From Desulfatiglandales bacterium (GTDB lineage: Bacteria; Desulfobacterota; DSM-4660; Desulfatiglandales; Desulfatiglandaceae), in NCBI GenBank assembly GCA_963662465.1, contig OY759599.1, positions 7,616,001 to 7,680,000 of the forward strand: a DNA stretch of 64,000 nucleotides. Reading direction: 5' to 3'. The notes under the pieces were generated by a model, which did not search any database, had not been told where the DNA came from, and saw only the letters and a list, made by a program, of their open reading frames with translations. Position 1 is the stretch's first letter, and the number at the start of each line of letters is the position of its first letter. Both the position numbers and the translations under genes were made by a program. Below are positions 22,423 to 36,426 of this stretch, in pieces.

Positions 22423-23837
22423 TTTCTAAGCCGCCTGTGCGGCGGTCAACTTGGCGGTAATGCGAATAACGCTCTGAACACTTTTCTAAGCCGCCTGTGC
22501 GGCGGTCAACCCACATCAACCCCAAAATATGGGTCGGTATCATTTCTAAGCCGCCTGTGCGGCGGTCAACACACGCAGTCCGCACGCGGGCTCAGGATTT
22601 TGTTTCTAAGCCGCCTGTGCGGCGGTCAACAATCGCAAAGATGAGTCCTGCAGAATTGGCAATTTCTAAGCCGCCTGTGCGGCGGTCAACGACGTTCATG
22701 CCTTCGTCGGTTTCCGGTGGTGTTTCTAAGCCGCCTGTGCGGCGGTCAACAGCGACTTTGCGGCTTCGGATGTCGATGGGTTTTTCTAAGCCGCCTGTGC
22801 GGCGGTCAACTAAAACTTGAATTTGTTGGTGATCCATTATCTTTTCTAAGCCGCCTGTGCGGCGGTCAACAAAGATGCAAGACCGGGATTACAGCAACGC
22901 TGGTTTCTAAGCCGCCTGTGCGGCGGTCAACACAAGAGCAGGATGCCGTGGATTCGGTTTTACTTTCTAAGCCGCCTGTGCGGCGGTCAACAGTTGAAAC
23001 CGGCATCAACTTTGTAACCGGAATTTCTAAGCCGCCTGTGCGGCGGTCAACCAATTTCGCCAGTTCCCAAACGTAATCATACATTTCTAAGCCGCCTGTG
23101 CGGCGGTCAACCGAGATACGGGCCTGGGGCCCCTGGCCGGACCATTTCTAAGCCGCCTGTGCGGCGGTCAACAATTTGATTTTATATAGATTACAAAAGG
23201 CCCGTTTCTAAGCCGCCTGTGCGGCGGTCAACTACGCAAGTGAGCCTACAGGTCATTCATATGATTTCTAAGCCGCCTGTGCGGCGGTCAACTCCGGTGA
23301 CCTTTGCGTCCGAGTTCAGCGACTTTTCTAAGCCGCCTGTGCGGCGGTCAACTTTGAACGATGCTGTATCAGCATGTAAATATTTTTCTAAGCCGCCTGT
23401 GCGGCGGTCAACCAGATGCCGGGACTCACCCGGCCCGAACGTCATTTCTAAGCCGCCTGTGCGGCGGTCAACACATTATTGCCCCTCGCAGTATTCAAAT
23501 TCGCGCTTTCTAAGCCGCCTGTGCGGCGGTCAACTTTCTTGAGAAACAGGAACGGTTATTTCATCATTTCTAAGCCGCCTGTGCGGCGGTCAACACATGC
23601 CAAAAACACTCAGTCAATCCCATATATTTTCTAAGCCGCCTGTGCGGCGGTCAACAATTACGGAGAAGCCGACCATATTTTCAGCCTTTTCTAAGCCGCC
23701 TGTGCGGCGGTCAACCGAATATCTACGTTTCGAATAACCCGGCGGACTTTTCTAAGCCGCCTGTGCGGCGGTCAACCGAATATCTACGTTTCGAATAACC
23801 CGGCGGACTTTTCTAAGCCGCCTGTGCGGCGGTCAAC
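22423..23837 (-). CRISPR. Type I-F CRISPR array, 24 repeats / 23 spacers (32-34 bp)
   Basis: Identical 28-bp repeat GTTGACCGCCGCACAGGCGGCTTAGAAA (minus strand) with CCGCC/GGCGG stem; adjacent to cas6f. Confidence 0.99.
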
Positions 23838-23966
23838 CTGTAACATTTTTTGAAAAAACTATGCGACAACGTAAACTTAAAAGAAATTGATCCAAAAAAC
23901 CAAAAAAATCATCCCAATTGCAAATGCTTGAAAACAATATGTTTTTAGGGAAATACTATTTTTAGG
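23838..23966 (-). promoter_or_regulatory. CRISPR leader
   Basis: AT-rich non-coding segment between the cas6f stop and the first repeat. Confidence 0.75.
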
Positions 23967-24545
23967 TTAAAACAGCGGCACTGTGGTTGTATTGCTCAAC
24001 CCATAACAGGAATACAGGCCTGCTTGCGGCTGCTCCATTATCCGTCTTTCAATAAACAAACGAAACCGTTGACCGTTTGTTTGGCTGACCATATTAATAT
24101 AAGGCAAACTGCTGAGTTGTTTTTTAAAATCTTTATAATGTACCAGGGCCTGCTGCAATGTTTCCCCTTTACGTTTGGCTCGGCGCCTTGCCAGATTCTC
24201 CTTGTTGCCTTTAGGTTTGATGTGCTTGAAACAAGCGTGCCCCGCTAATTTTTCAGGCACAGGTTTGATGTGGCTTAAATAGAGATAGTCGCTGAGACGT
24301 TTAAGCCATCTTTCACAGCACATTTGCTCCAACAATTTCTCTTCTTCTGCAAACAGTTGCAGTTTTGTACCAAGAGAGTATTTGCCGGCATCGTATTCAG
24401 GAAAAGCCAAACCAATTGCGGATGCGTTATCTGCTCTTTTGTTTTCAACCAAAGCAAGGTGAATCTGTTGATAAAATTTTTGCCAAAGAAAATACAGGCC
24501 TATATCCGCATTGGGTAGCACTGATATTTCTTGATAGTAGTTCAT
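23967..24545 (-). CDS. cas6f: Cas6f (Csy4) crRNA endoribonuclease
   Basis: QQIHLALVE (catalytic His), FPEY, Arg-rich helix, YGLS...TVPLF end. Confidence 0.95.
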   Translation of the reverse strand: MNYYQEISVLPNADIGLYFLWQKFYQQIHLALVENKRADNASAIGLAFPEYDAGKYSLGTKLQLFAEEEKLLEQMCCERWLKRLSDYLYLSHIKPVPEKLAGHACFKHIKPKGNKENLARRRAKRKGETLQQALVHYKDFKKQLSSLPYINMVSQTNGQRFRLFIERRIMEQPQAGLYSCYGLSNTTTVPLF

Positions 24546-24554
24546 CCTCGCTCC

Positions 24555-25604
24555 TTATTTGTCGCTTTTGCCGAATACACCACCACGTACCAGAACAGCC
24601 ATAACGTAGTGTTCATCCTCAACGCGGTCAAGTTTCTCGCCTCGTGCGAATTTATCAAAGAAAGTGTAGAAATCTTTTTTATCTTTTGTAGGATGACGGA
24701 AAGCTTTACCAAGGTTTGTCACTGCGCCATAAGGCTCAACAGCAATAGGGCCTACTGAGTTTTCCGGATCACCAAAGTCGGGATACCAAGTATCGATAGT
24801 GCGCAATGCGTTGCCGATTTTTTGCGAGTGCATTGCGGCAATGTCGTTAACGGAATACAGGATTTTACTTTTTTTGGATTTGCTATTGCCCTTATCCAAT
24901 ACCAATTCCTCGCTGGGATAGATTTCCTGCGCTTTTCCGACTTTGGCGAAACAAGTGATTTCCAGCATCAAAAAATCATTATCACTCGATAGTGCTGCGG
25001 CAATACGCTTCGCCAATGTTTCTATTTGCTCATCATCAATATTAAAATTTTTTGTAGTGAAGTTGGCTGAATCAAATACCCAAAACTTCTCAGATCCTTT
25101 GTTTAAAGCTTCCACCTGCACTTCTATGTTCTCAGTGCCAACTCGATTACGCCATAAAAAACGTGCATTAGCGATGTTTATTGCATATCTTTTTGCTAAC
25201 TCTCTAAATTTTCTTTCACTTATATAGTTTTTTGCTGCTGCGTAGTAACTCTTGTTAAAGGCAGCGTTATTGCAGGCGGATGGATATACAACGCCCCCCA
25301 AAACCTTTAATGTGAAATGTAGCTTCAGTGTATCTTGTTCCGTCCCCAAAGCACTTACATCAACTGTCTGCAAATTAGGATTTTCCACTTTTGCATCGAG
25401 TTTTGCAGGATCTTTTTCAAATGCTGCTTGATCTTTTTTATTCGGTCTGTTTGAGATTGTTCCTCGGACTGACTTTTCAATCAGCTTCAAAGGCGTAGCT
25501 TGCTCGTTTCGCCGATCCCATGTGGTGCCATACATCCGCCCATCTGACGGCACTAATTTCTTTTCAAACGCCAGTACTGATGCGATGTTCTCTTTTTTGG
25601 CCAT
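24555..25604 (-). CDS. csy3: Cas7f (Csy3)
   Basis: SVLAFEKKL, KSVRGTISNR, ARFLWRNR, HSQKIGNALRTIDTWY, RGGVFG. Confidence 0.97.
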   Translation of the reverse strand: MAKKENIASVLAFEKKLVPSDGRMYGTTWDRRNEQATPLKLIEKSVRGTISNRPNKKDQAAFEKDPAKLDAKVENPNLQTVDVSALGTEQDTLKLHFTLKVLGGVVYPSACNNAAFNKSYYAAAKNYISERKFRELAKRYAINIANARFLWRNRVGTENIEVQVEALNKGSEKFWVFDSANFTTKNFNIDDEQIETLAKRIAAALSSDNDFLMLEITCFAKVGKAQEIYPSEELVLDKGNSKSKKSKILYSVNDIAAMHSQKIGNALRTIDTWYPDFGDPENSVGPIAVEPYGAVTNLGKAFRHPTKDKKDFYTFFDKFARGEKLDRVEDEHYVMAVLVRGGVFGKSDK

Positions 25605-25883
25605 GACTTTTTTCTCCTAAATCTTGGGCGCTAACCAAAATGGAACCAGTTTTGCTACTCCAAACGGAACCAGATATTGCGCACTGGTCTTTTCCTTTTA
25701 GAAGGGTTTTCTTGTAAATTTGTTAGAGGTTGCATGAAAGAGTATATCAGATGGTATTTTAAAAATGCTGGTGAGACACGTAGCGTTCTGGTTGAAGAAT
25801 CAGTGATGAGGATACCATCAATATGGTGATGGCAGAGAAGAGGGGATTAGATTTTTCGGTTAAGGGCAATGCTTATTGAGGAA

Positions 25884-26093
25884 CTATTTGTCTATGTCAT
25901 AGTCGTCCGGTAAATTCAGGAGGCCTCCCTTCGCCAATTGATCCTCAATCAAATATCCAATTTCCCCGTTTTTTTTCAGCTGTAGAATCATCCATTTGGG
26001 GAGACGAATGGTGAGCAGTTCACGTCTCAAATGTTCCGGTTTCTTTCTTCGGCCGGCGCCTACCCGTTTTCCACCTCTCATTTCAAGCTCCAA
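25884..26093 (-). CDS. Small putative DNA-binding protein (RGGKRxGAGR + RHH-like)
   Basis: RGGKRVGAGRRKK followed by LLTIRLPKW. Confidence 0.55.
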   Translation of the reverse strand: MELEMRGGKRVGAGRRKKPEHLRRELLTIRLPKWMILQLKKNGEIGYLIEDQLAKGGLLNLPDDYDIDK

Positions 26094-26179
26094 GACAAGG
26101 TAATTTCTGATATTCGTGTAACGAGATTCAAACAGACCGGTGATATTCAGACCTCAAAACCGGCCCTTTGGCGAACATC

Positions 26180-26899
26180 TCATTTTCTGAGGGAAGGACC
26201 ATCAATATGAATGTTGATGCAGCGATGGTTGAGACGATCCAGCAAGGCATCGACCATGTCCTTTGGTTCAAGCAGCGAATACCATTGTTCAGGTTGAAGA
26301 TTGGTCGTAATAATTGTGGACCGACCGGCTTCATAGCGATCTTTCATGAGTTTAAAAAAGGCGTTCATCTGCTCTTTTTTGAGGGTCAGGTATCCCAGTT
26401 CATCGAGCAGAAGCAGGTCATATCTGCAAAGGGCATTGAGGAGTTTCGGGGTGGACCGATCTGCCAAAGACGCATAGAGCTGATCCAGCAAATCCTGAAC
26501 ATTATAAAAACGCCCCCGGTACCCGGCAATAATGGCTTGACGAAGGATCCCCACGGCCAATCCCGTTTTGCCGACGCCGGTTTTTCCATGGAACACGATG
26601 TTTTCTCTTCGGCTGATAAAGTCAAGGCCGGACAACGTCATGATCCGGCTCTTCTGTATTCCCGGCTGAAGATCAAACGGAAAGGAGTTGAGGGTCCATT
26701 CCCATGGAAGCTTTGCAATCTGGACCCGATAGATCATGCTGCGCTCCTGCCGGAAACGTAATTCCTCAGCCAGGAGATTGTAGATGACCTCGTGAATGGA
26801 AAAACCGTTCTTTTCAGCCGAAGCCAACTGTTCTTCGAGAGCCTTCAGCATGCCTTTAAACTTCAAATCAATGAGTAACTGTTCAATTTTCTTTTTCAT
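26180..26899 (-). CDS. istB: IS21 helper AAA+ ATPase IstB
   Basis: GKTGVGKT, LLLLDELGY, TIITTN, ALLDRL, GPSLR. Confidence 0.95.
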   Translation of the reverse strand: MKKKIEQLLIDLKFKGMLKALEEQLASAEKNGFSIHEVIYNLLAEELRFRQERSMIYRVQIAKLPWEWTLNSFPFDLQPGIQKSRIMTLSGLDFISRRENIVFHGKTGVGKTGLAVGILRQAIIAGYRGRFYNVQDLLDQLYASLADRSTPKLLNALCRYDLLLLDELGYLTLKKEQMNAFFKLMKDRYEAGRSTIITTNLQPEQWYSLLEPKDMVDALLDRLNHRCINIHIDGPSLRK

Positions 26900-28278
26900 A
26901 GATCAAAAAAGTCTCCCGCGATATAATCGAGAATAATGTTTTCCAGACGCGACAAATCAAAAAGTCCATATTTAAGCGCCTGTGTTATGGCTTTCAAAAA
27001 AGGTTCCCCGGGATAAGTGCGTTTCAGATGAAGCAACCGACGTAACTTGACCACACCGCGACCGTGACTTCTTTTCTTCAGTTCAGCCACATACTCATCC
27101 AGGATGGCATCCTCTCCCGTCAACAGCTGTTCTTCTTTTGAAGGGATTCGGGGATCTTTTTTTCTTCGAATGGGAACATGGTGACCGGGCAGGGTTGTTC
27201 GGGTGTTGCGTTTATCCAGTATGCGGTCATGTTCCGCCACTTTTGTGTTTTTGTCGTAAACGATGACCTTGAGCCAATGTTTCTGTACTTCCAGGGAGTT
27301 CCCAATCAGCGCTTCAGGGACTGAATAGCGGTTGGTGTCCAAGTGCACATATCCCTGAACATCGGCTACCCTGTGTTCTGCCACATAGACTGGCGGCTGG
27401 TATGCCGGTAAATCAATGAGATATGGCTTTTCAATGACATAGGCCTCATCCGGCGTCATCCCTAAAGCCCGTTTAAACTTTTTATCGCTTGTATTCCGGC
27501 ACCAGTCGATTGCCTGCCGGTTCAAATCCTGCCAGCTAACAAATGTTCTACCGGGAAGAAAATTGTTTTCCACAAAATGAAAAGGCCTTTCCACACGGGC
27601 ACTTCGATTGGCGTCTCCTACAGCATGGGCCTCAAACCGGGTTCCATACATATCGCCGAAGTATTTCATTTCAGGCGCAATCAATGCATCAGGCCCGGTG
27701 CCGCCGGCCACAATAACATTGGTGTTGTCAACCATGCACCGGGAACACACCCCGTCCATAAACTCGAATGCTTTTTTTAGGAAAACCTTGCACTCAAACC
27801 GGGTAAAACAGGGGTAATACTGAATAAAAATCCTTCGGCAAAAGGCCAGGGTCAGGGACGCGCACTGGGTCGACATTTTTTTCCCATTAATGACAACCAG
27901 ATGGGGTGACGTATCATGCTGCATCTCCTGACCGGGTTTAAAATGGTATTGGCCCGCCCGTCTTTTTTTACGTTCCCGGATCTCGTACTTTCTCATAATC
28001 CAGGTCAGACTCTGATAAGGGATTTTGATCTGTTGGCGGCTTTCCAGTTCCTCGGCTACTCGCACGGCATTTCCTTTACATTCCTTGAAAAGCTCGCGGA
28101 TCAACGGGACATGTTCTTCATACCGGGAGTTCCTTTGGGGTACCGCCTCTTCGTCATGATCATCTAAAACCTTCGTGACGGTATTGCGACCGGCCTTCAG
28201 GGTTTTGGCGATGTCGCGCAAACTCATGCCGGTTTTTTTCAATTCCACAATGGCATCTTTTTTGGATTGTCGGATCAT
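26896..28278 (-). CDS. istA: IS21 transposase IstA
   Basis: N-terminal HTH, PGQEMQHD, VDN, ARVERPF, NRYSVP. Confidence 0.93.
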   Translation of the reverse strand: MIRQSKKDAIVELKKTGMSLRDIAKTLKAGRNTVTKVLDDHDEEAVPQRNSRYEEHVPLIRELFKECKGNAVRVAEELESRQQIKIPYQSLTWIMRKYEIRERKKRRAGQYHFKPGQEMQHDTSPHLVVINGKKMSTQCASLTLAFCRRIFIQYYPCFTRFECKVFLKKAFEFMDGVCSRCMVDNTNVIVAGGTGPDALIAPEMKYFGDMYGTRFEAHAVGDANRSARVERPFHFVENNFLPGRTFVSWQDLNRQAIDWCRNTSDKKFKRALGMTPDEAYVIEKPYLIDLPAYQPPVYVAEHRVADVQGYVHLDTNRYSVPEALIGNSLEVQKHWLKVIVYDKNTKVAEHDRILDKRNTRTTLPGHHVPIRRKKDPRIPSKEEQLLTGEDAILDEYVAELKKRSHGRGVVKLRRLLHLKRTYPGEPFLKAITQALKYGLFDLSRLENIILDYIAGDFFDL

Positions 28279-29159
28279 AATTGGGTCGCTTTCTTGAGTT
28301 CCAGTGCTTGTTTTTCTATCTTTTTCACCCAGGTTTTGAGCGTTTGTTTCTTCAACTGATCGCTTTTTGGGTAATGGACATGCGAAACGGTTTTCACCAG
28401 ACGTTTGAGAACCGCATATGCCATTTCAATATCCTTGAACCATTTGCCTTCCGGTCCATCATGAACTTCTTTGGCTTGTTTAGACTGGGTTCTTTGTTCG
28501 AGAACTTTTATGAAAAGGGATGGATTTTCCAGCATGTGGTCTCGAACAGACCGGTTGCTTTTCTGGTAATGTGCGTAGAAACGGGCCAGTTCCCTTGTGG
28601 ATAGAGGTTCTTTTTCCAGGTGGGCCAACAGTTTTTGTGCGTCTTCACCGTTGGCGCGCGCCAACGGCGCCATGACACGGCTGGCAGCCCAGGTTGAAAG
28701 TGAGCCTGCAATCACGGTTCTCAAAATATTTTCCGGCAGGGCTTCAACCAGGTCCAGCCGCCGTTTTACAAAACTCTTGTCGCGCCCTATTCGGGTTGCA
28801 ATATGGGAGAGGCTGCACCCAAAACGCCGATGTAATTCCTGAAGTAAAACAGACTGCTCAATGACTTCCCATTGCCGTTCATTGGCCTTGGTTAAAAGCG
28901 AAAACATGGCATTTTGTTCGTTTTCTTTTGAGAATTGGACACATATCCGGTCCTTTCCACAAGCACAAAGCGCTCGAACACGCAGGTAGCCATCAATCAG
29001 AATCAGTTTGTCTTTTTCTTCAATAGCCAGGGCCGGAACGATCTGCCCGTAAGTTTCGATGGAATCCCTCAATCGCTTTAAAGCCTGGTGATTCATTATC
29101 CGGCAATGAGCGTAACGCAACTCCAGCAAATGAATATCAACGGTTCGGATGGATTCCAT
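28275..29159 (-). CDS. ParB/Srx N-terminal domain + HTH protein
   Basis: SIETYGQIVP, LIDGYLRVRA (GxxRxxA), HTH SLSHIATRIGRDKSFVKRRL; 4-bp overlap with istA. Confidence 0.85.
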   Translation of the reverse strand: MESIRTVDIHLLELRYAHCRIMNHQALKRLRDSIETYGQIVPALAIEEKDKLILIDGYLRVRALCACGKDRICVQFSKENEQNAMFSLLTKANERQWEVIEQSVLLQELHRRFGCSLSHIATRIGRDKSFVKRRLDLVEALPENILRTVIAGSLSTWAASRVMAPLARANGEDAQKLLAHLEKEPLSTRELARFYAHYQKSNRSVRDHMLENPSLFIKVLEQRTQSKQAKEVHDGPEGKWFKDIEMAYAVLKRLVKTVSHVHYPKSDQLKKQTLKTWVKKIEKQALELKKATQL

Positions 29160-29556
29160 ACCCAGTCTCCCGAAAGATTTCCTCTATGGTTTCTCCAAGA
29201 CTGACCCAATTTCCTTGCCGGATCTCCTTTACCTGTTTCACAATCACAGGACGTCTGGGAAGCGAAAGAACCTGAAACAGACGGCCATCAAACCCAATCA
29301 GATCCTTGTCCAACAAGCCATCGCGGGCATCGATATATTGATCCAAATGCACCTTTAAAATCCGGCAGATTCTGTCGTAACCATAATAAGAGAGCCCGTT
29401 TTTGTCAGATACCAACACCAGAAAAATGTAGAGCAGCAGCTCATGATGATTCAGGCTCTCCCAAAAGCCGTTTCTCAAAAAACGATGCTCCAGAAAGCCG
29501 AAGCTTCCATTGATGACACGCACTCTTTCGGGAAAAAGGACTCTTTTTTTGATCAT
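29137..29556 (-). CDS. Winged-HTH-like hypothetical protein
   Basis: ELLLYIFLVLVSDKNGLSYY...RICRIL; GGAG RBS; overlaps the parB-like gene. Confidence 0.7.
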   Translation of the reverse strand: MIKKRVLFPERVRVINGSFGFLEHRFLRNGFWESLNHHELLLYIFLVLVSDKNGLSYYGYDRICRILKVHLDQYIDARDGLLDKDLIGFDGRLFQVLSLPRRPVIVKQVKEIRQGNWVSLGETIEEIFRETGYGIHPNR

Positions 29557-29568
29557 TTTTTTCTCCTG

Positions 29569-30012
29569 TCATGGATATGGGGTTTTCTCAAAGCCTGTTA
29601 CATCTGAAAAAACCCTCCCTGCATAAGCACGGCGAGGAAAATGGTCCACAACAACCCCGATCGACCCGCAAAAAAGACAGCTGGGTCGGTTCCCCGACCG
29701 CTTTTTGGGTTCAATATCACAGTCTTTTTGAGGTGTTGAACTATCATCACCAGGGTTCAGTCCATTTTTTTTGGATTTTTTTGTTTTTTCGTACAAACGA
29801 CGGCGCTCTTTCCCTTTTTTCGAATTGCGGTATTTCCCCTGAGCTTTCCGGTGCAGCTGTCTTTGGCGTATCCTGCGACATCGTTCCCCACAATAGGCCT
29901 GGCCACGCCAACACGACCGACAGACGTGAAAAAAGCAACCACAACATCGGCATTGAACCACTCTTAAAAGGACATCTCCCATCATTCCAGCCTTGCAATT
30001 GGCCGGAAACAC
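29569..30012 (-). CDS. Cys-rich basic zinc-binding hypothetical protein
   Basis: CRCCGCFFHVCRSCWRGQAYCGERC and C-terminal CLFCG; stop 12 bp before the next gene; start uncertain. Confidence 0.65.
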   Translation of the reverse strand: MFPANCKAGMMGDVLLRVVQCRCCGCFFHVCRSCWRGQAYCGERCRRIRQRQLHRKAQGKYRNSKKGKERRRLYEKTKKSKKNGLNPGDDSSTPQKDCDIEPKKRSGNRPSCLFCGSIGVVVDHFPRRAYAGRVFSDVTGFEKTPYP

Positions 30013-30061
30013 ACTTATATAAAATTGGCGTGTGTGTGGCTTCCGGCTCTATCCGGTGGTC

Positions 30062-30098
30062 AAAAAAGAAGGCCCGAAGCGGCTACTTCGGGCCTTCA
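30062..30098 (-). terminator. Rho-independent terminator-like hairpin inside the transposon end
   Basis: Minus strand gaaggcccgaag-tagccg-cttcgggccttc followed by tttttt. Confidence 0.65.
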
Positions 30099-30360
30099 CC
30101 ATCCATTCTACAAAGTAAATCGCATTTCCACTTAACCAAGCCTCTGTCTTGGAAGAAGAAAACCAAATCCAAAGAAAATAGATTTTATAAAAATTTATTG
30201 AAAAGTAAATCTACATCAACGACTCCTTTGCCGCCACTTATGGATCCCTCATCGTCCGCTATACCTGAGGGCCGTACTCACCGGCGGTGACAGCCAATGG
30301 TTCAATTTCCATTAGCAAACTTGGTTCAGTTTTGATTAGCGTTGAAGCCTAAATTTATTA

Positions 30361-31302
30361 TTATTGGTTTAAGTCGCTTTGACTGGTTTGTTGACACAGG
30401 TATAGACCCTGTTCCATATCAGCATGATAGCGCCAAAAGATTTCATCCAGGGTATGGAGTCTGTGCGGCATACGGAATTCACCCAGCGTTACCACACTTT
30501 CGGCAAAACGATGCTGCGTATCCGGATCACGCTGGTTTTTTGCCGACCCTAATTCGGTGATGCCATGAAAGCCCGTGGCGATTGGAACGATCCATCCCGA
30601 TGTTTTTCGTTGGCTTGCCCAAGTAACATTGCCGTCATCGTCTTGTTCACAAGTGTGATGAAGCGCCAGATAATCCAGCATGGTATCAATGGGGTCCTGG
30701 CCTTGCGCCATGGCCTCTATCATCAATTCACGGCGTTCGATTATTGCATAACCCGGCATTAATTGCCGAGTCAGCCTGTGCAGTTCGGCGTCGTTACCTT
30801 CTTCTATTCTGTGCAGTGTCGGTTTTTGAAAAGATAAAATATCGCCACCGGCTATTTTCATGGATACATTTAGATGATGGGTAACCTGCCCTATTAATGC
30901 CTCTTCATCGTCTTTGTTTATGCGGGAGTATTCAATAAGTAGAGAAACATTCAAATGGCATCGGGCTTCCTCGATAAATGATGGCGCTGAGCCGGCATTA
31001 AAATCGGTAAGCTCTTTCTTAGTTGAAGGTGGACGCTTTGGAACAATTATGGACTGAACAAAATCGCCATCTACAAATTTTGTTTGAAGGTCCATACCAT
31101 GGCTAACAACCGCCACACTGCTAAAAATCAGGTTTTGCAATCCTTCTGATCCTGCGGCGTTCACTTTACGCTGCAACGCATGCATTGCGCCCAACCAGGC
31201 CGTCATAGCTGGAAAACCAACCGTAAACGGGCTGGATAAGGCATTGGCATTCTGCACCTTGATATGCGGCAAAAGTAAAACTCGCCTGATATCTCCGATC
31301 AT
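30361..31302 (-). CDS. csy2: Cas5f (Csy2)
   Basis: IKVQNANALSSPFTVGFPAMTAWLG, KIAGG, GWIVPIATG, HRFAESV. Confidence 0.95.
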   Translation of the reverse strand: MIGDIRRVLLLPHIKVQNANALSSPFTVGFPAMTAWLGAMHALQRKVNAAGSEGLQNLIFSSVAVVSHGMDLQTKFVDGDFVQSIIVPKRPPSTKKELTDFNAGSAPSFIEEARCHLNVSLLIEYSRINKDDEEALIGQVTHHLNVSMKIAGGDILSFQKPTLHRIEEGNDAELHRLTRQLMPGYAIIERRELMIEAMAQGQDPIDTMLDYLALHHTCEQDDDGNVTWASQRKTSGWIVPIATGFHGITELGSAKNQRDPDTQHRFAESVVTLGEFRMPHRLHTLDEIFWRYHADMEQGLYLCQQTSQSDLNQ

Positions 31303-33111
31303 CGTAACGCCTCCCTGTTATTAGTCACAATTTTATAAATATGCAGGCGAACATCTTCACCCAATTTATATGCCTGTTTGCCCAACAACTTTTCATAGGT
31401 GAGGACGATCCAACCGCTAATTTTCCTACACAGTTTGTTGAGCCATTCATTTTCTTCTTGACGTGATTGTTGAAATCCTTCGCAGAGCCATGTTTCCTGA
31501 TGAGGTTTTAACTGTGAGCTCTTCGCTTGATATTGTTCGGTACAAACAGCCCGCACCGCCCACATTTTGTTAATAATTCGGTCCATTAAATCCTGTAAAC
31601 GATAATCACGCCCTTCTCTTATGTGTACATTGTTGTATTCTGTTTTGAACAACCTATGCAGCGCATCAAAGACCTCTCGATATTCGTGATATCGAAATGA
31701 TTCCCTGAAGAAATTCTGTTTGGGAAAACGGATTCCGCGCTTTTGTAAAGTTGGTGGGGCAGAATATAATAAATAATACCATTGATATGTATTGTTTAAT
31801 CCACTGATATTTTTTGGGTGTTCCCCACCATGACGGGTGACGGTCAAATTTGGTATGGTTGAAAATCCAGTTTGGGAATATTTATTATCTTTCCTTAATT
31901 TCTTTCCTGTATAAGCTTCCGGAGATCTTTCGTTAATAGTGTCTATTTTCTCTTTTACGGAAAAGACCAACGCCGATGGCGTCAGTAATGACAACGAATG
32001 ATAATCATCGCCTACCGGGAAATATATCTGCCGGACATACTGATTTGTTCTCACATCTTCATTGGCCATGCAGGCTGAAAAGTTCTCAATCCAGATTTTT
32101 GCTCTATCTTCACTAACGCCAAAAATTTGTTGAAATATTAAAAAATTCTTTGCTTTAATATATTCCAGCAACGGTTTTTGCCGATATTTCAACGATATAA
32201 ATTTAAAAGCTTTCAAATACTTTGCGTCGACATGCATATCAAAAACTACGTCAGAATTTCCGGTTCGAATGAAGCCATCCGATGATGAATTTGAAGACGC
32301 AAAAACCTTTGGGAACTTACATTCCGGGTTAGTCATCTTTGCTGGGTGACTGACGATGGCGCCGTGTGTGCTATCTTCAGAAATCTTGTCTATGGTTTCG
32401 CAAACACCGGCCATACATAAATTCAGACCTCGTTACGATGAATAAATAATCGGACAATGTGTAAAATATTTCCAGTAATATCAGCGTGTTGAAAAAACAC
32501 GAAAATTATGTGTAAAATTGGACGTTGGCATAAAACGTGCTTATATATGCAAGTATTTGAACTTACAATGTAAAAATTATTTCAAGGTTTTAATCTACCC
32601 TGATATTGTCCAAAAAAAGCGTCTAAAACTAACGAGGTCTGAAATTTGAATTTTCCAGTTCTTCTTGAAATAGCAAAAAAAACGCCAATGGCTCCGGATT
32701 GCATACTTTTGCTTTTTCAATGCATTTGCTGATCAGTTCTTGTTCTAACTGCAAGTCTTCCAGTAGCTCTGCAATTATCGGATGCCCGTCATCACAAGCA
32801 GATTTAAAGCTTCGTTTGTATAACACCTCCAAGGTTAAAAGCCGGAACAAATCTTCTTCACCCTGATTCGATGGAAAACATGCGCCTTTTAGGCCCTGTG
32901 ACAACACTTTGTTTAACCAAGTACCATACTCATATTCTTCGTTTAATTTCTTTTTGATATTTTCCCTGATTTGATTTCTTAATCGCTTTTCCTCTTTTTG
33001 GTCTATAAATTCATCTGAATCATCTTTGATTTTATCAAACTCACTATCGACAGATTCCTTCAAACGGTTTTTTAACAGCTTATCAATATGCTCTTTTAGC
33101 TTGTTTTCCAT
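31299..33111 (-). pseudogene. csy1: Cas8f (Csy1) split by a MITE (fragments 32629-33111 and 31299-32414)
   Basis: SHPAKMTNP, RQIYFPV..YH.L, GGEHPKNISGLN, LLYSAPP; removing the MITE plus one TSD fuses the fragments in frame (...ENSNLCMAGVCET...). Confidence 0.9.
32424..32641. mobile_element. 218-bp MITE
   Basis: Perfect 12-bp TIR CAGACCTCGTTA / TAACGAGGTCTG; 5-bp TSD AAATT at 32419-32423 and 32642-32646; AT-rich non-coding interior. Confidence 0.92.
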
Positions 33112-33120
33112 ATGCTCTCC

Positions 33121-36100
33121 TCAACCATCAACTTTTGTGACCAAACCAAACTGATCCGAATATTCGTACTCCTGACCCTCTCGATAAATGAAACTCAATT
33201 CTCCATAGCGAAGTGATATCGCTTTTTTGCTGCAATCTTGTTGCTCTGCATACTGTTCAAGCAATTTTTCATAGTCACGCTTAAGCCATAATCTATCCGC
33301 CTGGCTCTTGTTGAGGCGCTGATGATCTATTTGCAGAATATTTTGACGGTTAACAGGGTGGCCTTTCTCATCCTTTTCAATAAAAAAACATCTCTCTTCA
33401 TCTGTCTCATACATCAAAAACACCTTGGTGGTTGGCTCGCCTTTGCGAAATGGATTGAGAGCTTGCGGCAGAGCCGTCAAATGCCAGCTTTCCGCCAGAT
33501 AGCCTTGCAATTTTTCAGGCCCCACCCCATTATAATTGGCAAGCTGAATTTGAGTGACTTTATGTTCCAGATCGACCAGGGAATTTCGATAATTCAGACC
33601 ATTTGGTTTTTGAATGCGCGGGATGGCATTTACACTTTGTGCCATCGCCTTGGTATCGATCAGTTCGCACAAGTCATGCGTATCCAACACTTGTTTATCT
33701 TCATAACCCGGACGACAGAAGTATTTTTTGCCAGGCTGATTTCCATCTTTGATCGTCTTCCAGTTGTATTGCAGCAAGCCGATATTAGGATAATCCACCT
33801 CACCCTCACGATGCCGGCGAACACGACCTGCGAGTTGAATAATAGAACGGTAAGAAGATGGCTCGACTATGGCCCAGTCAAAATCATGGTCACGACCAAC
33901 TTCTTCCACCGGCGTGGCCACCACAACAAACACCAATTGTTCAGCTGTGCTGTTATCCAAATGTTCGCGTATTACGGCATTGCCAAAAACTTTTGCTTGT
34001 TCACCGGGTTTTTCTTTGCGTTTGAGAACACTATCCAAATGCTTTTCCTGCTCATGGCGCAAGAGCAATACTTGCTGAGAATGATAAGCCATCACCTTGA
34101 TATCAACATCATCCGGCCAGTCGCATTCCATTAGATTTTTAGCTGCATCGACACAAGGGGAGATATTGGCCACTCGTACAACACCAAATGAAACCTTGAT
34201 ACCTGTTTGCTTATCTTCGGTGTGGTGATGTCGGTGTTTGGTTAAAATAGCTTGCTGAATTCTGTCAAAATATTGATCCTGTTTGGTTCCCACACTGTCA
34301 AATTCGTAATCATCGACAATGCTTTGGCATTCGATGATGTCGGCTTTACGTTTTGCCGGTTGTCGGCTCAACTTCTCCACCCGCTTTGCAACAAACCGAT
34401 GGTGATCGTCGCGGTAAACTGCGATAGCAGCATGATTTTGACGTTCATCAATGCTTGTTACGACGGTTTTAAATTCATCTATCCAAGCACAGCCAATTTT
34501 GCTGCCGACATCACGGGTTTGGCTATATATTTGCCAGCCGGAACGGTAAGCATTAAAATAGCCTTCTGCCAAATCAGGTGGAATCGTAGCGGATGAAATC
34601 ATCACCTTGCGGCCCAACATTCCGGCAAGGTGGATTAAGCGGCCGATGGCAATCAGATCACTACCCGTAAAATCATCCACTTCATCAATGACTAAATCGG
34701 AAGACATCAGTCGTAAACTCGGCAATATATAACGGCCACCTCGCTTGGTTTCAGTTGCAGCCATCATATGATCGATGGTACACGCCAATACAGGCGCATA
34801 CAGAAACTGACGGTCGCGCTGTTGTTTGAGTACCGTTGCCAAACCTTCTTCCGGGATATCGCACCCGTAATCAACATCCTCATCCAACAATGAGTCCAGA
34901 GACTTAGAACCTAACGGCCTATCTTCTAAACATTCATTGTTTTGTCTTATCTGGTTATGAAGTTCTGTAATAGCTTTAGAACCGATTAGCACTGCCAAAT
35001 CACTGTCATCCAAACCAATGCGATCACGGTATTCATCTCCTGTTTGCAGCGTCAAAGTACGCAAGCCAAGTGCAAGGATATAGCGCAGGCTGTCGCCGTC
35101 CGATGATAAGGCCCGCATGACCTTGGCGTTGGCAAAGGTTTTGCCACAACCGGTACTTGCCATATTGACGGCATAGAAACCATATCGTGATTTGTTTTGT
35201 TGCTTCAGCCACGCCTTTATTTCTTCAACTGCTTTATTTTGCCAAGCAAATGCCTTTGGACTGGGCTTTTTGAGGGCAAGTATGCTTTGTGCTGAGGGCG
35301 GCTCATGTTCAAATTTCGATAACAAATGAGCAGTGCGCAGTGCGTTTTTCATTACCCCCACAAGGTGCTCATCTAGTTTTTGTTTGAAGGCCTTTGTTTT
35401 GTCCGTATTGGCGAACAATCCGGTTGTATCCATCCAGCTGTTATCTGCCGCTTGAGATGAATAGTAGTGGTCCCCCAGCATTAAACACAAACGGACATGA
35501 TGCAAAATCAAGCGGTAGCAGCCATTGCCCATAACTTGCTCAACACTGGGTAAACAATCTTGCAAGCGTTGCGCCCATTTTTTTACCAGCTTTAACCAGC
35601 GTGAAGACTGACTTAATAAACCGTTAGGGAATTCAAAGCAGGCATTGAATCTTTTTTGAAATCCTTGTTTGCCATCACGACGGTCTTCATAGCCCCAATC
35701 CAAGGTGATATATTTCAACACTGAATCCATATCAGGTGCAGGTTCGTCACGCCAATTTTCCTTGTCGTATGGCAAAGGCATTCTGTGGTGAGACAAAATC
35801 AACCAGAAAATCAATTTTGCCGCTGGGGGAATCTGTCCAAACGGCTTTTGGTCCTGTTGCTTTGCTGTCTTGCTTAAGCGAATGCCATCGAGTTCGCCAT
35901 TAATCAGCATTAACAACCAAGATTTATCATTATCTTGACTATCACTGGTTTTGATTAACGCTTGCAACAGAAGGCAGGAAATCCATTCGTGTCGAATGGG
36001 ATCAGCCAATCTGGAACAATTTTTCAGTTTTTCTTGGAACAATGCCGTGGCTTTTCCCCAGTCATGCAATAAGGCAGCAAGTGCTGCAAGCGATTTAATA

Positions 36101-36426
36101 AGGGGTAAATAATGCCAGTCATTTTCAAATTGAGGAATGCTCTTTTGTGTATAATTCACCGGCACCACACCCTCTTCGCCAAACTTGCTTTTATTCCCCA
36201 CCACCCATAAAAACTGGCTTCTGGAACGACTCCTGATCCAGTGGCAGGATACGGCGGTGCTTTTGCTGGCGGTTCGGCGCAGATTTTTTTTGACCGTTTT
36301 CAGGCCTTCTTCCGTGATGAGTGTTTGCCAGGTATTGTCGCCGATACGGTTGGCAAATGCATCAAGGACCCGCCTGGTTTTTTTGAGGGCTTTTTTTTCG
36401 CACTGGGAAACAAAGATTACCATCAT
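33121..36426 (-). CDS. cas3f: Cas2-Cas3 fusion helicase/nuclease (type I-F)
   Basis: N-terminal Cas2 (SQCEKKALKKTRRVLD), HD LLHDWGK, ASTGCGKT, DEVD, SAT, QLAGRVRRH. Confidence 0.97.
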   Translation of the reverse strand: MMVIFVSQCEKKALKKTRRVLDAFANRIGDNTWQTLITEEGLKTVKKNLRRTASKSTAVSCHWIRSRSRSQFLWVVGNKSKFGEEGVVPVNYTQKSIPQFENDWHYLPLIKSLAALAALLHDWGKATALFQEKLKNCSRLADPIRHEWISCLLLQALIKTSDSQDNDKSWLLMLINGELDGIRLSKTAKQQDQKPFGQIPPAAKLIFWLILSHHRMPLPYDKENWRDEPAPDMDSVLKYITLDWGYEDRRDGKQGFQKRFNACFEFPNGLLSQSSRWLKLVKKWAQRLQDCLPSVEQVMGNGCYRLILHHVRLCLMLGDHYYSSQAADNSWMDTTGLFANTDKTKAFKQKLDEHLVGVMKNALRTAHLLSKFEHEPPSAQSILALKKPSPKAFAWQNKAVEEIKAWLKQQNKSRYGFYAVNMASTGCGKTFANAKVMRALSSDGDSLRYILALGLRTLTLQTGDEYRDRIGLDDSDLAVLIGSKAITELHNQIRQNNECLEDRPLGSKSLDSLLDEDVDYGCDIPEEGLATVLKQQRDRQFLYAPVLACTIDHMMAATETKRGGRYILPSLRLMSSDLVIDEVDDFTGSDLIAIGRLIHLAGMLGRKVMISSATIPPDLAEGYFNAYRSGWQIYSQTRDVGSKIGCAWIDEFKTVVTSIDERQNHAAIAVYRDDHHRFVAKRVEKLSRQPAKRKADIIECQSIVDDYEFDSVGTKQDQYFDRIQQAILTKHRHHHTEDKQTGIKVSFGVVRVANISPCVDAAKNLMECDWPDDVDIKVMAYHSQQVLLLRHEQEKHLDSVLKRKEKPGEQAKVFGNAVIREHLDNSTAEQLVFVVVATPVEEVGRDHDFDWAIVEPSSYRSIIQLAGRVRRHREGEVDYPNIGLLQYNWKTIKDGNQPGKKYFCRPGYEDKQVLDTHDLCELIDTKAMAQSVNAIPRIQKPNGLNYRNSLVDLEHKVTQIQLANYNGVGPEKLQGYLAESWHLTALPQALNPFRKGEPTTKVFLMYETDEERCFFIEKDEKGHPVNRQNILQIDHQRLNKSQADRLWLKRDYEKLLEQYAEQQDCSKKAISLRYGELSFIYREGQEYEYSDQFGLVTKVDG

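Follow-up and report, generated by a model that had tools for sequence, protein, structure and literature searches.

An IS21-related transposon clade that carries a ParB-like protein and a conserved palindrome inside its parB gene

The 64,000-nucleotide window analyzed here (contig OY759599.1 of a Desulfatiglandales bacterium, positions 7,616,001 to 7,680,000) contains a 4,725-bp transposable element on the minus strand (25623..30347), which we describe as an autonomous IS21-related transposon of a large leader-parB-istA-istB clade to which a ParB/parS-like unit has been added. The element is flanked by identical copies of the target-site duplication CCTAAAT on the istB side (25616..25622) and on the leader side (30348..30354). 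Each end holds two repeats with a spacing of 24 bp. The right end (25623..25672, minus strand) carries IstA-type repeats and has the 3' terminus ...CCCAAG, not ...CA, while the left end (30298..30347, minus strand) has the 5' terminus CTTCAACGCTAA; the end arms are 77% complementary over 44 nt. Six open reading frames (ORFs) share one orientation, encoding a Cys-rich leader protein, a winged helix-turn-helix (wHTH) protein, ParB, IstA, IstB, and Orf6, and the genes overlap at wHTH/parB (23 bp), parB/istA (4 bp), and istA/istB (4 bp). An initial annotation, made from the letters alone, had placed the element at these coordinates with repeat-type ends, a 7-bp duplication, and six co-oriented genes with the same three overlaps, all of which is borne out at this copy. 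It had also called the ends IS21 type, which needs correction as to the termini: they read 5'-CTT...AAG-3' here, not the TG...CA of IS21.

The source genome (G000) carries 21 uninterrupted copies of the element with at least 99.4% identity, in addition to 4 copies that other insertions interrupt, a single truncated copy, and a single fragment of the left end. Because there are so many near-identical copies, the element is no chance pattern. Duplications flank 17 of the 21 uninterrupted copies (one of 5 bp, one of 6 bp, eight of 7 bp, and seven of 8 bp) and are missing from the other four, such that the 7-bp length first reported is right for the window copy and does not hold as a general size, which ranges from 5 to 8 bp. 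Moving the boundary a single base inward left a duplication in only 1 of the 21 copies, and the bases beyond the boundary vary between copies. Read depth was ~1,100 over the element versus 32 to 45 in its flanks, consistent with the copy number. The ratio of nonsynonymous to synonymous substitution rates (dN/dS) was below 1 in all five genes tested (0.05 to 0.32), and members of the family measure 3.8 to 5.3 kb. The element is active or was so very recently. Two RNA-library runs covered it piecewise, which cannot demonstrate expression, and no end-to-end joint of a circle appeared in four contig-stored runs, a format in which rare forms are lost.

No clear target motif was seen by eye among the 17 duplications, nor was there a strand bias, and 13 of the 21 reconstructed empty sites lie inside ORFs of at least 150 amino acids by a rough count. 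Replication-linked targeting was considered and rejected, with 16 of 27 copies sharing the orientation of the fork (P = 0.44). Two copies, at G000:C1:5347739 and 6067428, lack a duplication of their own and share ATAAGGG crosswise, a sign of recombination between copies.

Both transposition proteins retain their catalytic motifs. istB (26180..26899, minus strand) encodes an AAA+ helper ATPase (NF038214, 225 bits against a cut-off of 200; PF01695), and istA (26896..28278, minus strand) encodes an Asp-Asp-Glu (DDE) transposase of a divergent IS21 clade. Its best family, NF033546, scores 129 bits, below the cut-off of 160; the catalytic triad (D122, D184, and E230) is unchanged in 27 homologs, and the only relative with a solved structure is the IstA of IS5376 (E = 5e-28). 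The IstA profile found no relative among viral sequences. PMC10122671 characterizes the IS21 family by two ORFs and a terminal CA. In clade A, to which the window element belongs, and its companion clade B, the duplication-verified 5' ends read CT (15) or CC (7) in 22 of 22 cases, whereas canonical two-gene IS21 controls from the same taxonomic class had TG...CA at 3 of 3 resolved ends, a fourth pair being unresolved. The ends of a deeper clade, D, appear to retain TG as judged without a duplication check. The element is an IS21 variant that departs from the family on two of its marks, the two ORFs and the terminal CA, yet keeps IS21 chemistry.

Two other IS21-type loci deserve mention. An element present in three copies in the source genome (L071; G000:C1:7835547-7839898) has no ParB and encodes an IstA fusion whose primase-like tail includes a Toprim domain; its ends are CCC...GGG, likewise non-CA, and it makes a 5-bp duplication. 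At L077 (G284:C86), IstA looks chimeric, with a canonical N-terminal half and a C-terminal half that, like its IstB, resembles clade A; this locus has no parB and sits on a long branch as the sister group of clades A and B.

The parB-like gene (28275..29159, minus strand) encodes a protein with a ParB/Srx N-terminal fold, a helix-turn-helix (HTH) domain, and a helical C-terminal domain, and its linkage to istA is close to invariant. We searched metagenome contigs with an IstA profile and used the best 80 of at least 595 relatives (45 to 70% identity, some of them near-duplicates); ParB lay directly upstream of IstA in 75 of the 75 loci having more than 300 nt upstream. When a ParB profile was used instead, 18 of the 19 top loci from the same class had IstA downstream, the exception being a truncated parB, as did 9 of 9 loci from a second phylum, that of G596. 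Of ten weaker loci, three were read, and all of these were chromosomal parAB. ParB was not upstream in any of the 30 best-matching canonical IS21 loci from that class, 23 of which had at least 700 nt before the aligned part. The family is large, since 676 clusters at 50% identity reach an E value of 1e-30 with the ParB profile.

ParB and IstA have also descended together. Among 61 elements dereplicated at 90% IstA identity, the Mantel statistic for IstA and ParB distances was 0.84, compared to 0.88 for the IstA-IstB control. The ParB tree shared 32 of 58 splits with the IstA tree (IstB, 30; random expectation, 0.2), and well-supported splits conflicted with IstA in 6 of 34 cases for ParB and 2 of 23 for IstB. 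Clades A and B form a single branch (Shimodaira-Hasegawa-like approximate likelihood ratio test, 95), while the deeper group D has ParB and lies outside this branch with its placement unresolved. In a tree built without plasmid outgroups, the element ParBs cluster apart from chromosomal ParB on a long branch. A plasmid search with the ParB of the window element gave no match; one clade B element is located on plasmid pHRM2a, and clade B also includes a second G000 element whose IstA is 31% identical. This second element, with copies at G000:C1:8094473-8099500 (L069) and 6813482-6822866 (L070), one of them interrupted by element C, has the order leader-parB-istA-istB-CHC2 zinc finger-orf6 and ends in CTA...TAG.

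Taken together, these comparisons indicate that parB is a core gene of the clade and not cargo. The initial annotation had regarded the upstream genes as a core module rather than passive cargo and had put forward ParB-IstA-IstB neighborhoods and IstA/ParB co-phylogeny as the way to check this. Both speak for ParB, which close IstA relatives do not lack; the proposed three-gene module of leader, wHTH, and parB is not a single unit, since the wHTH gene (like orf6) is optional and the leader, though usually present, is swapped.

The predicted structure of ParB (mean predicted local distance difference test score [pLDDT], 90.5) had ParB, Noc, and KorB as its best Foldseek matches. The Box I arginine (R20) and the glycine and arginine of the Box II GxxR motif (G57 and R60) are each found in 60 of 61 proteins; the GxxR motif and the HTH claimed at the outset are both present. 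Box II reads DG[YF]xR versus the AGERR of ParB, with the Glu of GERR replaced by Tyr or Phe in 60 of 61, and the Glu-Asn pair of Box III is absent in clades A and B. No parA was found in any element examined, the neighbors of parB being the leader or wHTH gene and istA, and no N-terminal extension precedes the fold. Box III is often lost among orphan ParBs, and the nucleotide used by a ParB fold is not predictable from sequence, according to a survey of ParB folds (10.1101/2025.10.10.680097). The protein may use cytidine triphosphate (CTP) and slide on DNA.

Inside parB, from the last base of codon 165 through codon 170, lies a 16-bp perfect palindrome, GTTGGCGCGCGCCAAC (28650..28665), which extends to 20 bp with its flanks (28648-28667) and is the putative docking site of ParB. 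The left end is 1,690 bp away from it, and the right end is 3,034 bp away. We located it by scanning for shared palindromes and for invariant synonymous positions, both of which pointed to parB codons 165-170. The four-fold-degenerate third positions of codons 167 and 168 were 100% invariant over 52 clade A elements, compared to a mean of 51%, and were the top values among 524 such sites in three genes. Across the 61 elements, 46 had perfect 16-mers, 12 had 14/16 matching bases, and 3 had fewer; the mean number of paired bases was 15.4 of 16, versus 10.2 after synonymous recoding. The two arms change jointly at positions 1, 2, 4, 5, 6, and 7, even at the cost of two amino acid replacements. 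Clade B has GTT(C/T)ATACGTAT(G/A)AAC-type perfect palindromes at the same place in parB, and four of five group D loci have GTTGCC(A/G)CG(T/C)GGCAAC there. The clade B element of the source genome has a palindrome of its own, GTTCATACGTATGAAC. These patterns show that the 16-bp palindrome is under selection at the DNA level.

The palindrome also co-varies, in these alignments, with the recognition helix of ParB. Base 4 of the site was G in 43 of 43 elements with Arg133 and was not G in 18 of 18 without it. Base 2 was A in 14 of 14 elements with Gln128 (accounting for 14 of the 15 A sites), and the mirror base 15 was T in 11 of these 14. On the tree, the Arg133-G pair changed 3 times, and the Gln128-A pair changed 5 to 7 times. 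In distant representatives, of which 116 of 148 could be parsed, an Ile/Met codon giving A at base 2 occurred in 14 of 15 proteins with Gln128 versus 5 of 101 others. Alignment-based mapping matches residues 128 and 133 to R173 and N178 of Caulobacter ParB and residue 128 to Q173 of Noc. Judging from parS and Noc-binding site (NBS) sequences, we take the second base of the 16-mer to be what PMC7383237 numbers as position 1. In that study, R173 of Caulobacter ParB reads G in parS, and Gln reads A in the NBS, such that exchanging Arg for Gln switches the base in the site from G to A (PMC7383237). By conservation and covariation, a cognate palindrome of the ParB type and 16-bp length is present, and a ParB dimer probably binds it as ParB and Noc bind parS and the NBS.

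Copies of the site also occur in small elements that contain no genes. With a degenerate site pattern, we surveyed 341 genomes plus viral contigs. One draft genome (G316) had 16 sites, which include those of two gene-less types closed by ends on either side, a 210-bp unit in 11 full copies and a 216-bp unit in 2. Closed gene-less units with the site were also found in G099 (257 bp) and on a viral contig (L304; 386 bp). Duplications flanked one of the two 216-bp copies (6 bp), the 257-bp unit (6 bp), and the 386-bp unit (5 bp). When the two G316 types were compared, their ends were 85% alike and their interiors 56%, while the site matched at 16 of 16 positions; in a third, decayed copy of this kind, the site had decayed too. 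The sequences flanking the site in miniatures no longer resemble parB. In two miniatures (L361:2291-2332 and L362 near position 411, in G099), the site is extended to a palindrome of ~40 bp. Across all loci collected, the site was present at 12/16 or better in 54 of 55 distinct closed end pairs, the exception being L068/L076. The miniatures keep both ends plus the site. Since a single internal deletion would have to leave a whole 1.7- or 3.0-kb arm in place, miniatures of no more than 400 bp would have lost DNA on both sides of the site.

The exact site was rarer. In a search of the class, it was found in 7 of 209 genomes, and 9 of the 10 loci examined lay in parB; the remaining one, in G445, was in non-coding DNA 216 bp from an end. 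The source genome has a single exact site outside copies of the element, located 256 bp inward from the only spare clade A end, in DNA where nothing matches an element protein. This spare right end with its palindrome (L080; G000:C1:3732981-3733252), for which no matching left end was found, sits beside a comM-like fragment and a large helicase/ATPase cluster.

The remaining genes are less constant. The Cys-rich leader gene of the window element, of type Z1 (29569..30012, minus strand; the start may instead be the ATG at 29985), encodes a zinc-finger-like motif, a basic helix, and a C-terminal CxxC, belongs to no Pfam family, and has a dN/dS of 0.16 to 0.32. A terminator-like hairpin followed by a T run (30068..30097, minus strand) lies in the leader region and is kept in 6 of 6 aligned leaders. 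The wHTH gene (29137..29556, minus strand), an optional plug-in, is HTH_36-like (PF13730, 23 bits, below the cut-off of 25); its single-sequence fold (pLDDT, 42) was not used. orf6 (25884..26093, minus strand), which encodes a basic 69-amino-acid protein with no Pfam or NCBIfam match, is an optional passenger that is missing from an 86%-identical relative (L019) and occurs in other G000 elements. Across 92 loci, the Cys-rich leader was found in 57 (many others being too short to judge), the wHTH gene in 7, and orf6 in 3, and leader types swap across the IstA tree. Searches with the wHTH and leader proteins returned only unnamed or HTH_36 clusters.

The same modules occur elsewhere in the source genome. 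Two triple tyrosine-recombinase units have relatives of the wHTH protein (58 to 63%) at their head, and a Z2-type repeat array together with a clade B-like CHC2 zinc-finger gene occupies this position in a third; these recombinase-in-trio (RIT)-like units with wHTH, CHC2, or Z2-repeat modules are L078, L079, and G000:C1:7044335-7053900. Primase-type zinc fingers or a Toprim fusion occur in sister elements. The leader, the wHTH gene, and orf6 are probably interchangeable add-ons that act as regulators. Separately, small acidic ORFs of ~66 amino acids follow istB in 13 loci (e.g., L140:3949 and L101:3912), forming two clusters without a Pfam family.

Elements with a Z2-type leader have a DNA repeat that occurs twice with a spacing of ~81 bp, along with a third copy nearer parB. 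At L089, L119, L150, L163, and ~30 other loci, we observed TTGCAAAGATGGACGCG twice (mostly 81 bp apart) plus a variant, 40 to 240 nt before parB. Synonymous sites within the repeat are fixed (GCA in 55 of 57, compared to 12% of Ala codons elsewhere), and a -10-like box is present 12 to 15 nt before the ATG at 31 of 55 parB starts versus 0 of 58 istA starts. The Z2-type upstream region probably acts as a leaderless promoter under the control of the Z2 protein. The repeat was also considered as the site of ParB, and this was rejected: the repeat tracks the Z2 gene and does not occur in the window element, which is of the Z1 type and has neither Z2 repeats nor the -10-like box arrangement.

The window copy lies in a type I-F CRISPR operon, between cas5f/csy2 (30361-31302) and cas7f/csy3 (24555-25604). 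The latter, together with cas6f (23967-24545) and a 24-repeat array, forms the context outside the element on the istB side (22423..25604, minus strand). Within the operon region (window 22423-36426), the insertion is just inside the ribosome-binding site of cas7f, and the duplication keeps this binding site intact; the hairpin of the leader region could exert polar effects on cas7f and cas6f, and a 160-amino-acid ORF (32629-33111) lies between cas2-3 and cas8f. A functional CRISPR link, as in a CRISPR-associated transposon, was rejected, given that the insertion splits cas5f from cas7f, the cas genes are outside the ends, and 0 of 23 spacers match the element. The source genome has one array of this repeat type versus 21 intact copies of the element, all but one of them elsewhere. 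The placement in the I-F operon is incidental.

When compared with known systems, the element resembles IS21 and IS5376 in its DDE transposase, overlapping istA-istB, two repeats per end, and short duplication, and it differs from the two-ORF, CA-ended form outlined in PMC10122671 in having parB, a leader gene, and a conserved internal palindrome. The similarity to ParB-parS and Noc-NBS lies in the N-terminal fold, the HTH, a 16-bp palindrome, and the same Arg/Gln switch for G/A at the same helix position; in contrast to those systems, the element has no ParA, an altered Box II, no Box III Glu-Asn, and one site inside its own gene, on a transposon. The orphan ParB clamps KorB of RK2, VirB, and BisD of the integrative and conjugative element (ICE) ICEclc likewise have a ParA-less ParB fold and their own palindrome in a coding region. 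However, these proteins regulate transcription of plasmids or ICEs, and none has been described in a DDE transposon. For BisD, one report places the sites within genes (10.1101/2024.09.16.613209). The main text of the ParB-fold survey (10.1101/2025.10.10.680097) contains no match for "transpos" or "insertion sequence," though its supplements may list such proteins. Our literature searches, whose coverage excluded ISfinder and most subscription papers, found no paper describing a ParB-carrying IS21 family. Phage Mu offers a parallel in its internal cis site that helps two ends meet; its enhancer is read by the transposase, and its central strong site is read by host gyrase. Tn7 is similar in that extra proteins are coupled to a DDE/AAA+ pair, and its accessory proteins select targets. 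For IS21, PMC10293859 states that no target selector has been reported.

On balance, we favor a model in which ParB, bound to the internal site, licenses transposition by IstA in cis. According to this model, a ParB dimer would bind the palindrome and reach the ends by nucleoside triphosphate-gated sliding or by looping, over 1.7 and 3.0 kb in the window element and less than 200 bp in closed miniatures; site-to-end distances this variable fit either route. ParB would act in cis as a positive cofactor for loading, pairing, or licensing of the IstA end complex, such that only DNA with two ends plus the site is mobilized, and IstB would then capture the target as in IS21. A need in cis is favored because the site of a repressor or of a pure transcription factor would not persist in gene-less elements, to which immunity or segregation would bring little benefit. 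It is a more tentative suggestion, one we hold at somewhat less than even confidence, that a nucleotide-gated ParB clamp loads at this internal "centromere," slides to the ends, and licenses the transpososome in a widespread class of DDE elements. On such a clamp reading, it may be, with similar reserve, that a private protein-site address decides which copies and miniatures are moved and that the main clade also gave up the terminal CA. Of the three roles raised in the initial annotation, end pairing or licensing in cis gains from the internal site and the miniatures, while target immunity and circle maintenance gain little.

Several observations weigh against licensing in cis. None of the 12 closed copies of the 210-bp type of G316 had a duplication, a lack for which collapsed assembly may or may not be the reason, and this draft genome yielded no autonomous partner. 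Most of the miniatures were discovered by way of the site, so that site-less ones may be missed; two viral scans that started from the ends yielded one closed end pair, with the site, which is a small sample. Nor is the site diagnostic by itself, given that no end lay close to 22 of the 24 loci matching the degenerate pattern or to 21 of the 22 viral loci. The closed element L068/L076 has lost parB and the site, has a broken istA, and lacks a duplication. The link to Arg133 rests on just three tree changes, and among 115 close ParB homologs, 61 have the sequence PLSRVN or PLSRAN, which costs one base pair. Finally, with the Glu of GERR and Box III missing, a ParB-type hydrolysis cycle is uncertain.

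The same data bear on other explanations. ParB binding to the palindrome could serve solely to control transcription of the operon, as for KorB, VirB, and BisD, in which case miniatures would retain the site for some secondary reason, for example to titrate a repressor. Two studies describe orphan ParB clamps on mobile elements as usually regulators (10.1101/2024.09.16.613209; 10.1101/2025.10.10.680097), IS91 is regulated by an overlapping upstream gene according to PMC13181058, and the three repeats and -10-like box before parB are regulatory anatomy. We nevertheless regard this explanation as unlikely, if worth keeping in view, since several separate miniatures keep the site without genes and without surrounding parB sequence and since the upstream repeats track the Z2 leader gene, not the ParB type, which suggests that this control is exerted by another protein. 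It is extremely improbable that parB is passive cargo with a palindrome that arises as a by-product of the protein motif PLARAN: the peptide alone gives 10.2 of 16 paired bases, but the invariant synonymous sites, symmetry-restoring amino acid pairs, clade B and D palindromes, co-descent, and miniatures all contradict it.

ParB spreading from the site might also confer target immunity by keeping IstB off the element and its surroundings. The mechanism of immunity in IS21 is open according to PMC11208146, there were 0 self-insertions among the five copy interruptions, and the closest copies are ~25 kb apart; for 26 copies in 8.2 Mb, however, such spacing is expected by chance (~0.2, a hand estimate), and gene-less miniatures would gain little from immunity, yet they keep the site. 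We consider this role improbable. A role for ParB and its site in holding, condensing, or segregating an excised circle would be in line with the proposal that BisD positions excised ICE DNA (10.1101/2024.09.16.613209) and with the primase-type zinc fingers and Toprim fusion of sister elements. The lack of parA and of an extension before the ParB fold and the absence of a conserved origin or replicase from the elements make this role quite remote in our judgment.

IS21 is the textbook model of two-protein, ATPase-regulated transposition, and ParB clamps are known from DNA segregation and long-range gene control. Active DDE elements that end in AG or GG instead of CA bear on how transposases read their cleavage sites, and the family offers natural matched pairs of recognition helix and palindrome as well as natural minimal substrates of 210 to 386 bp. 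If the pair of ParB and its site is indeed required on the donor, it would be a novel means of verifying that both ends are those of a single element, and the ParB fold would acquire a new job.

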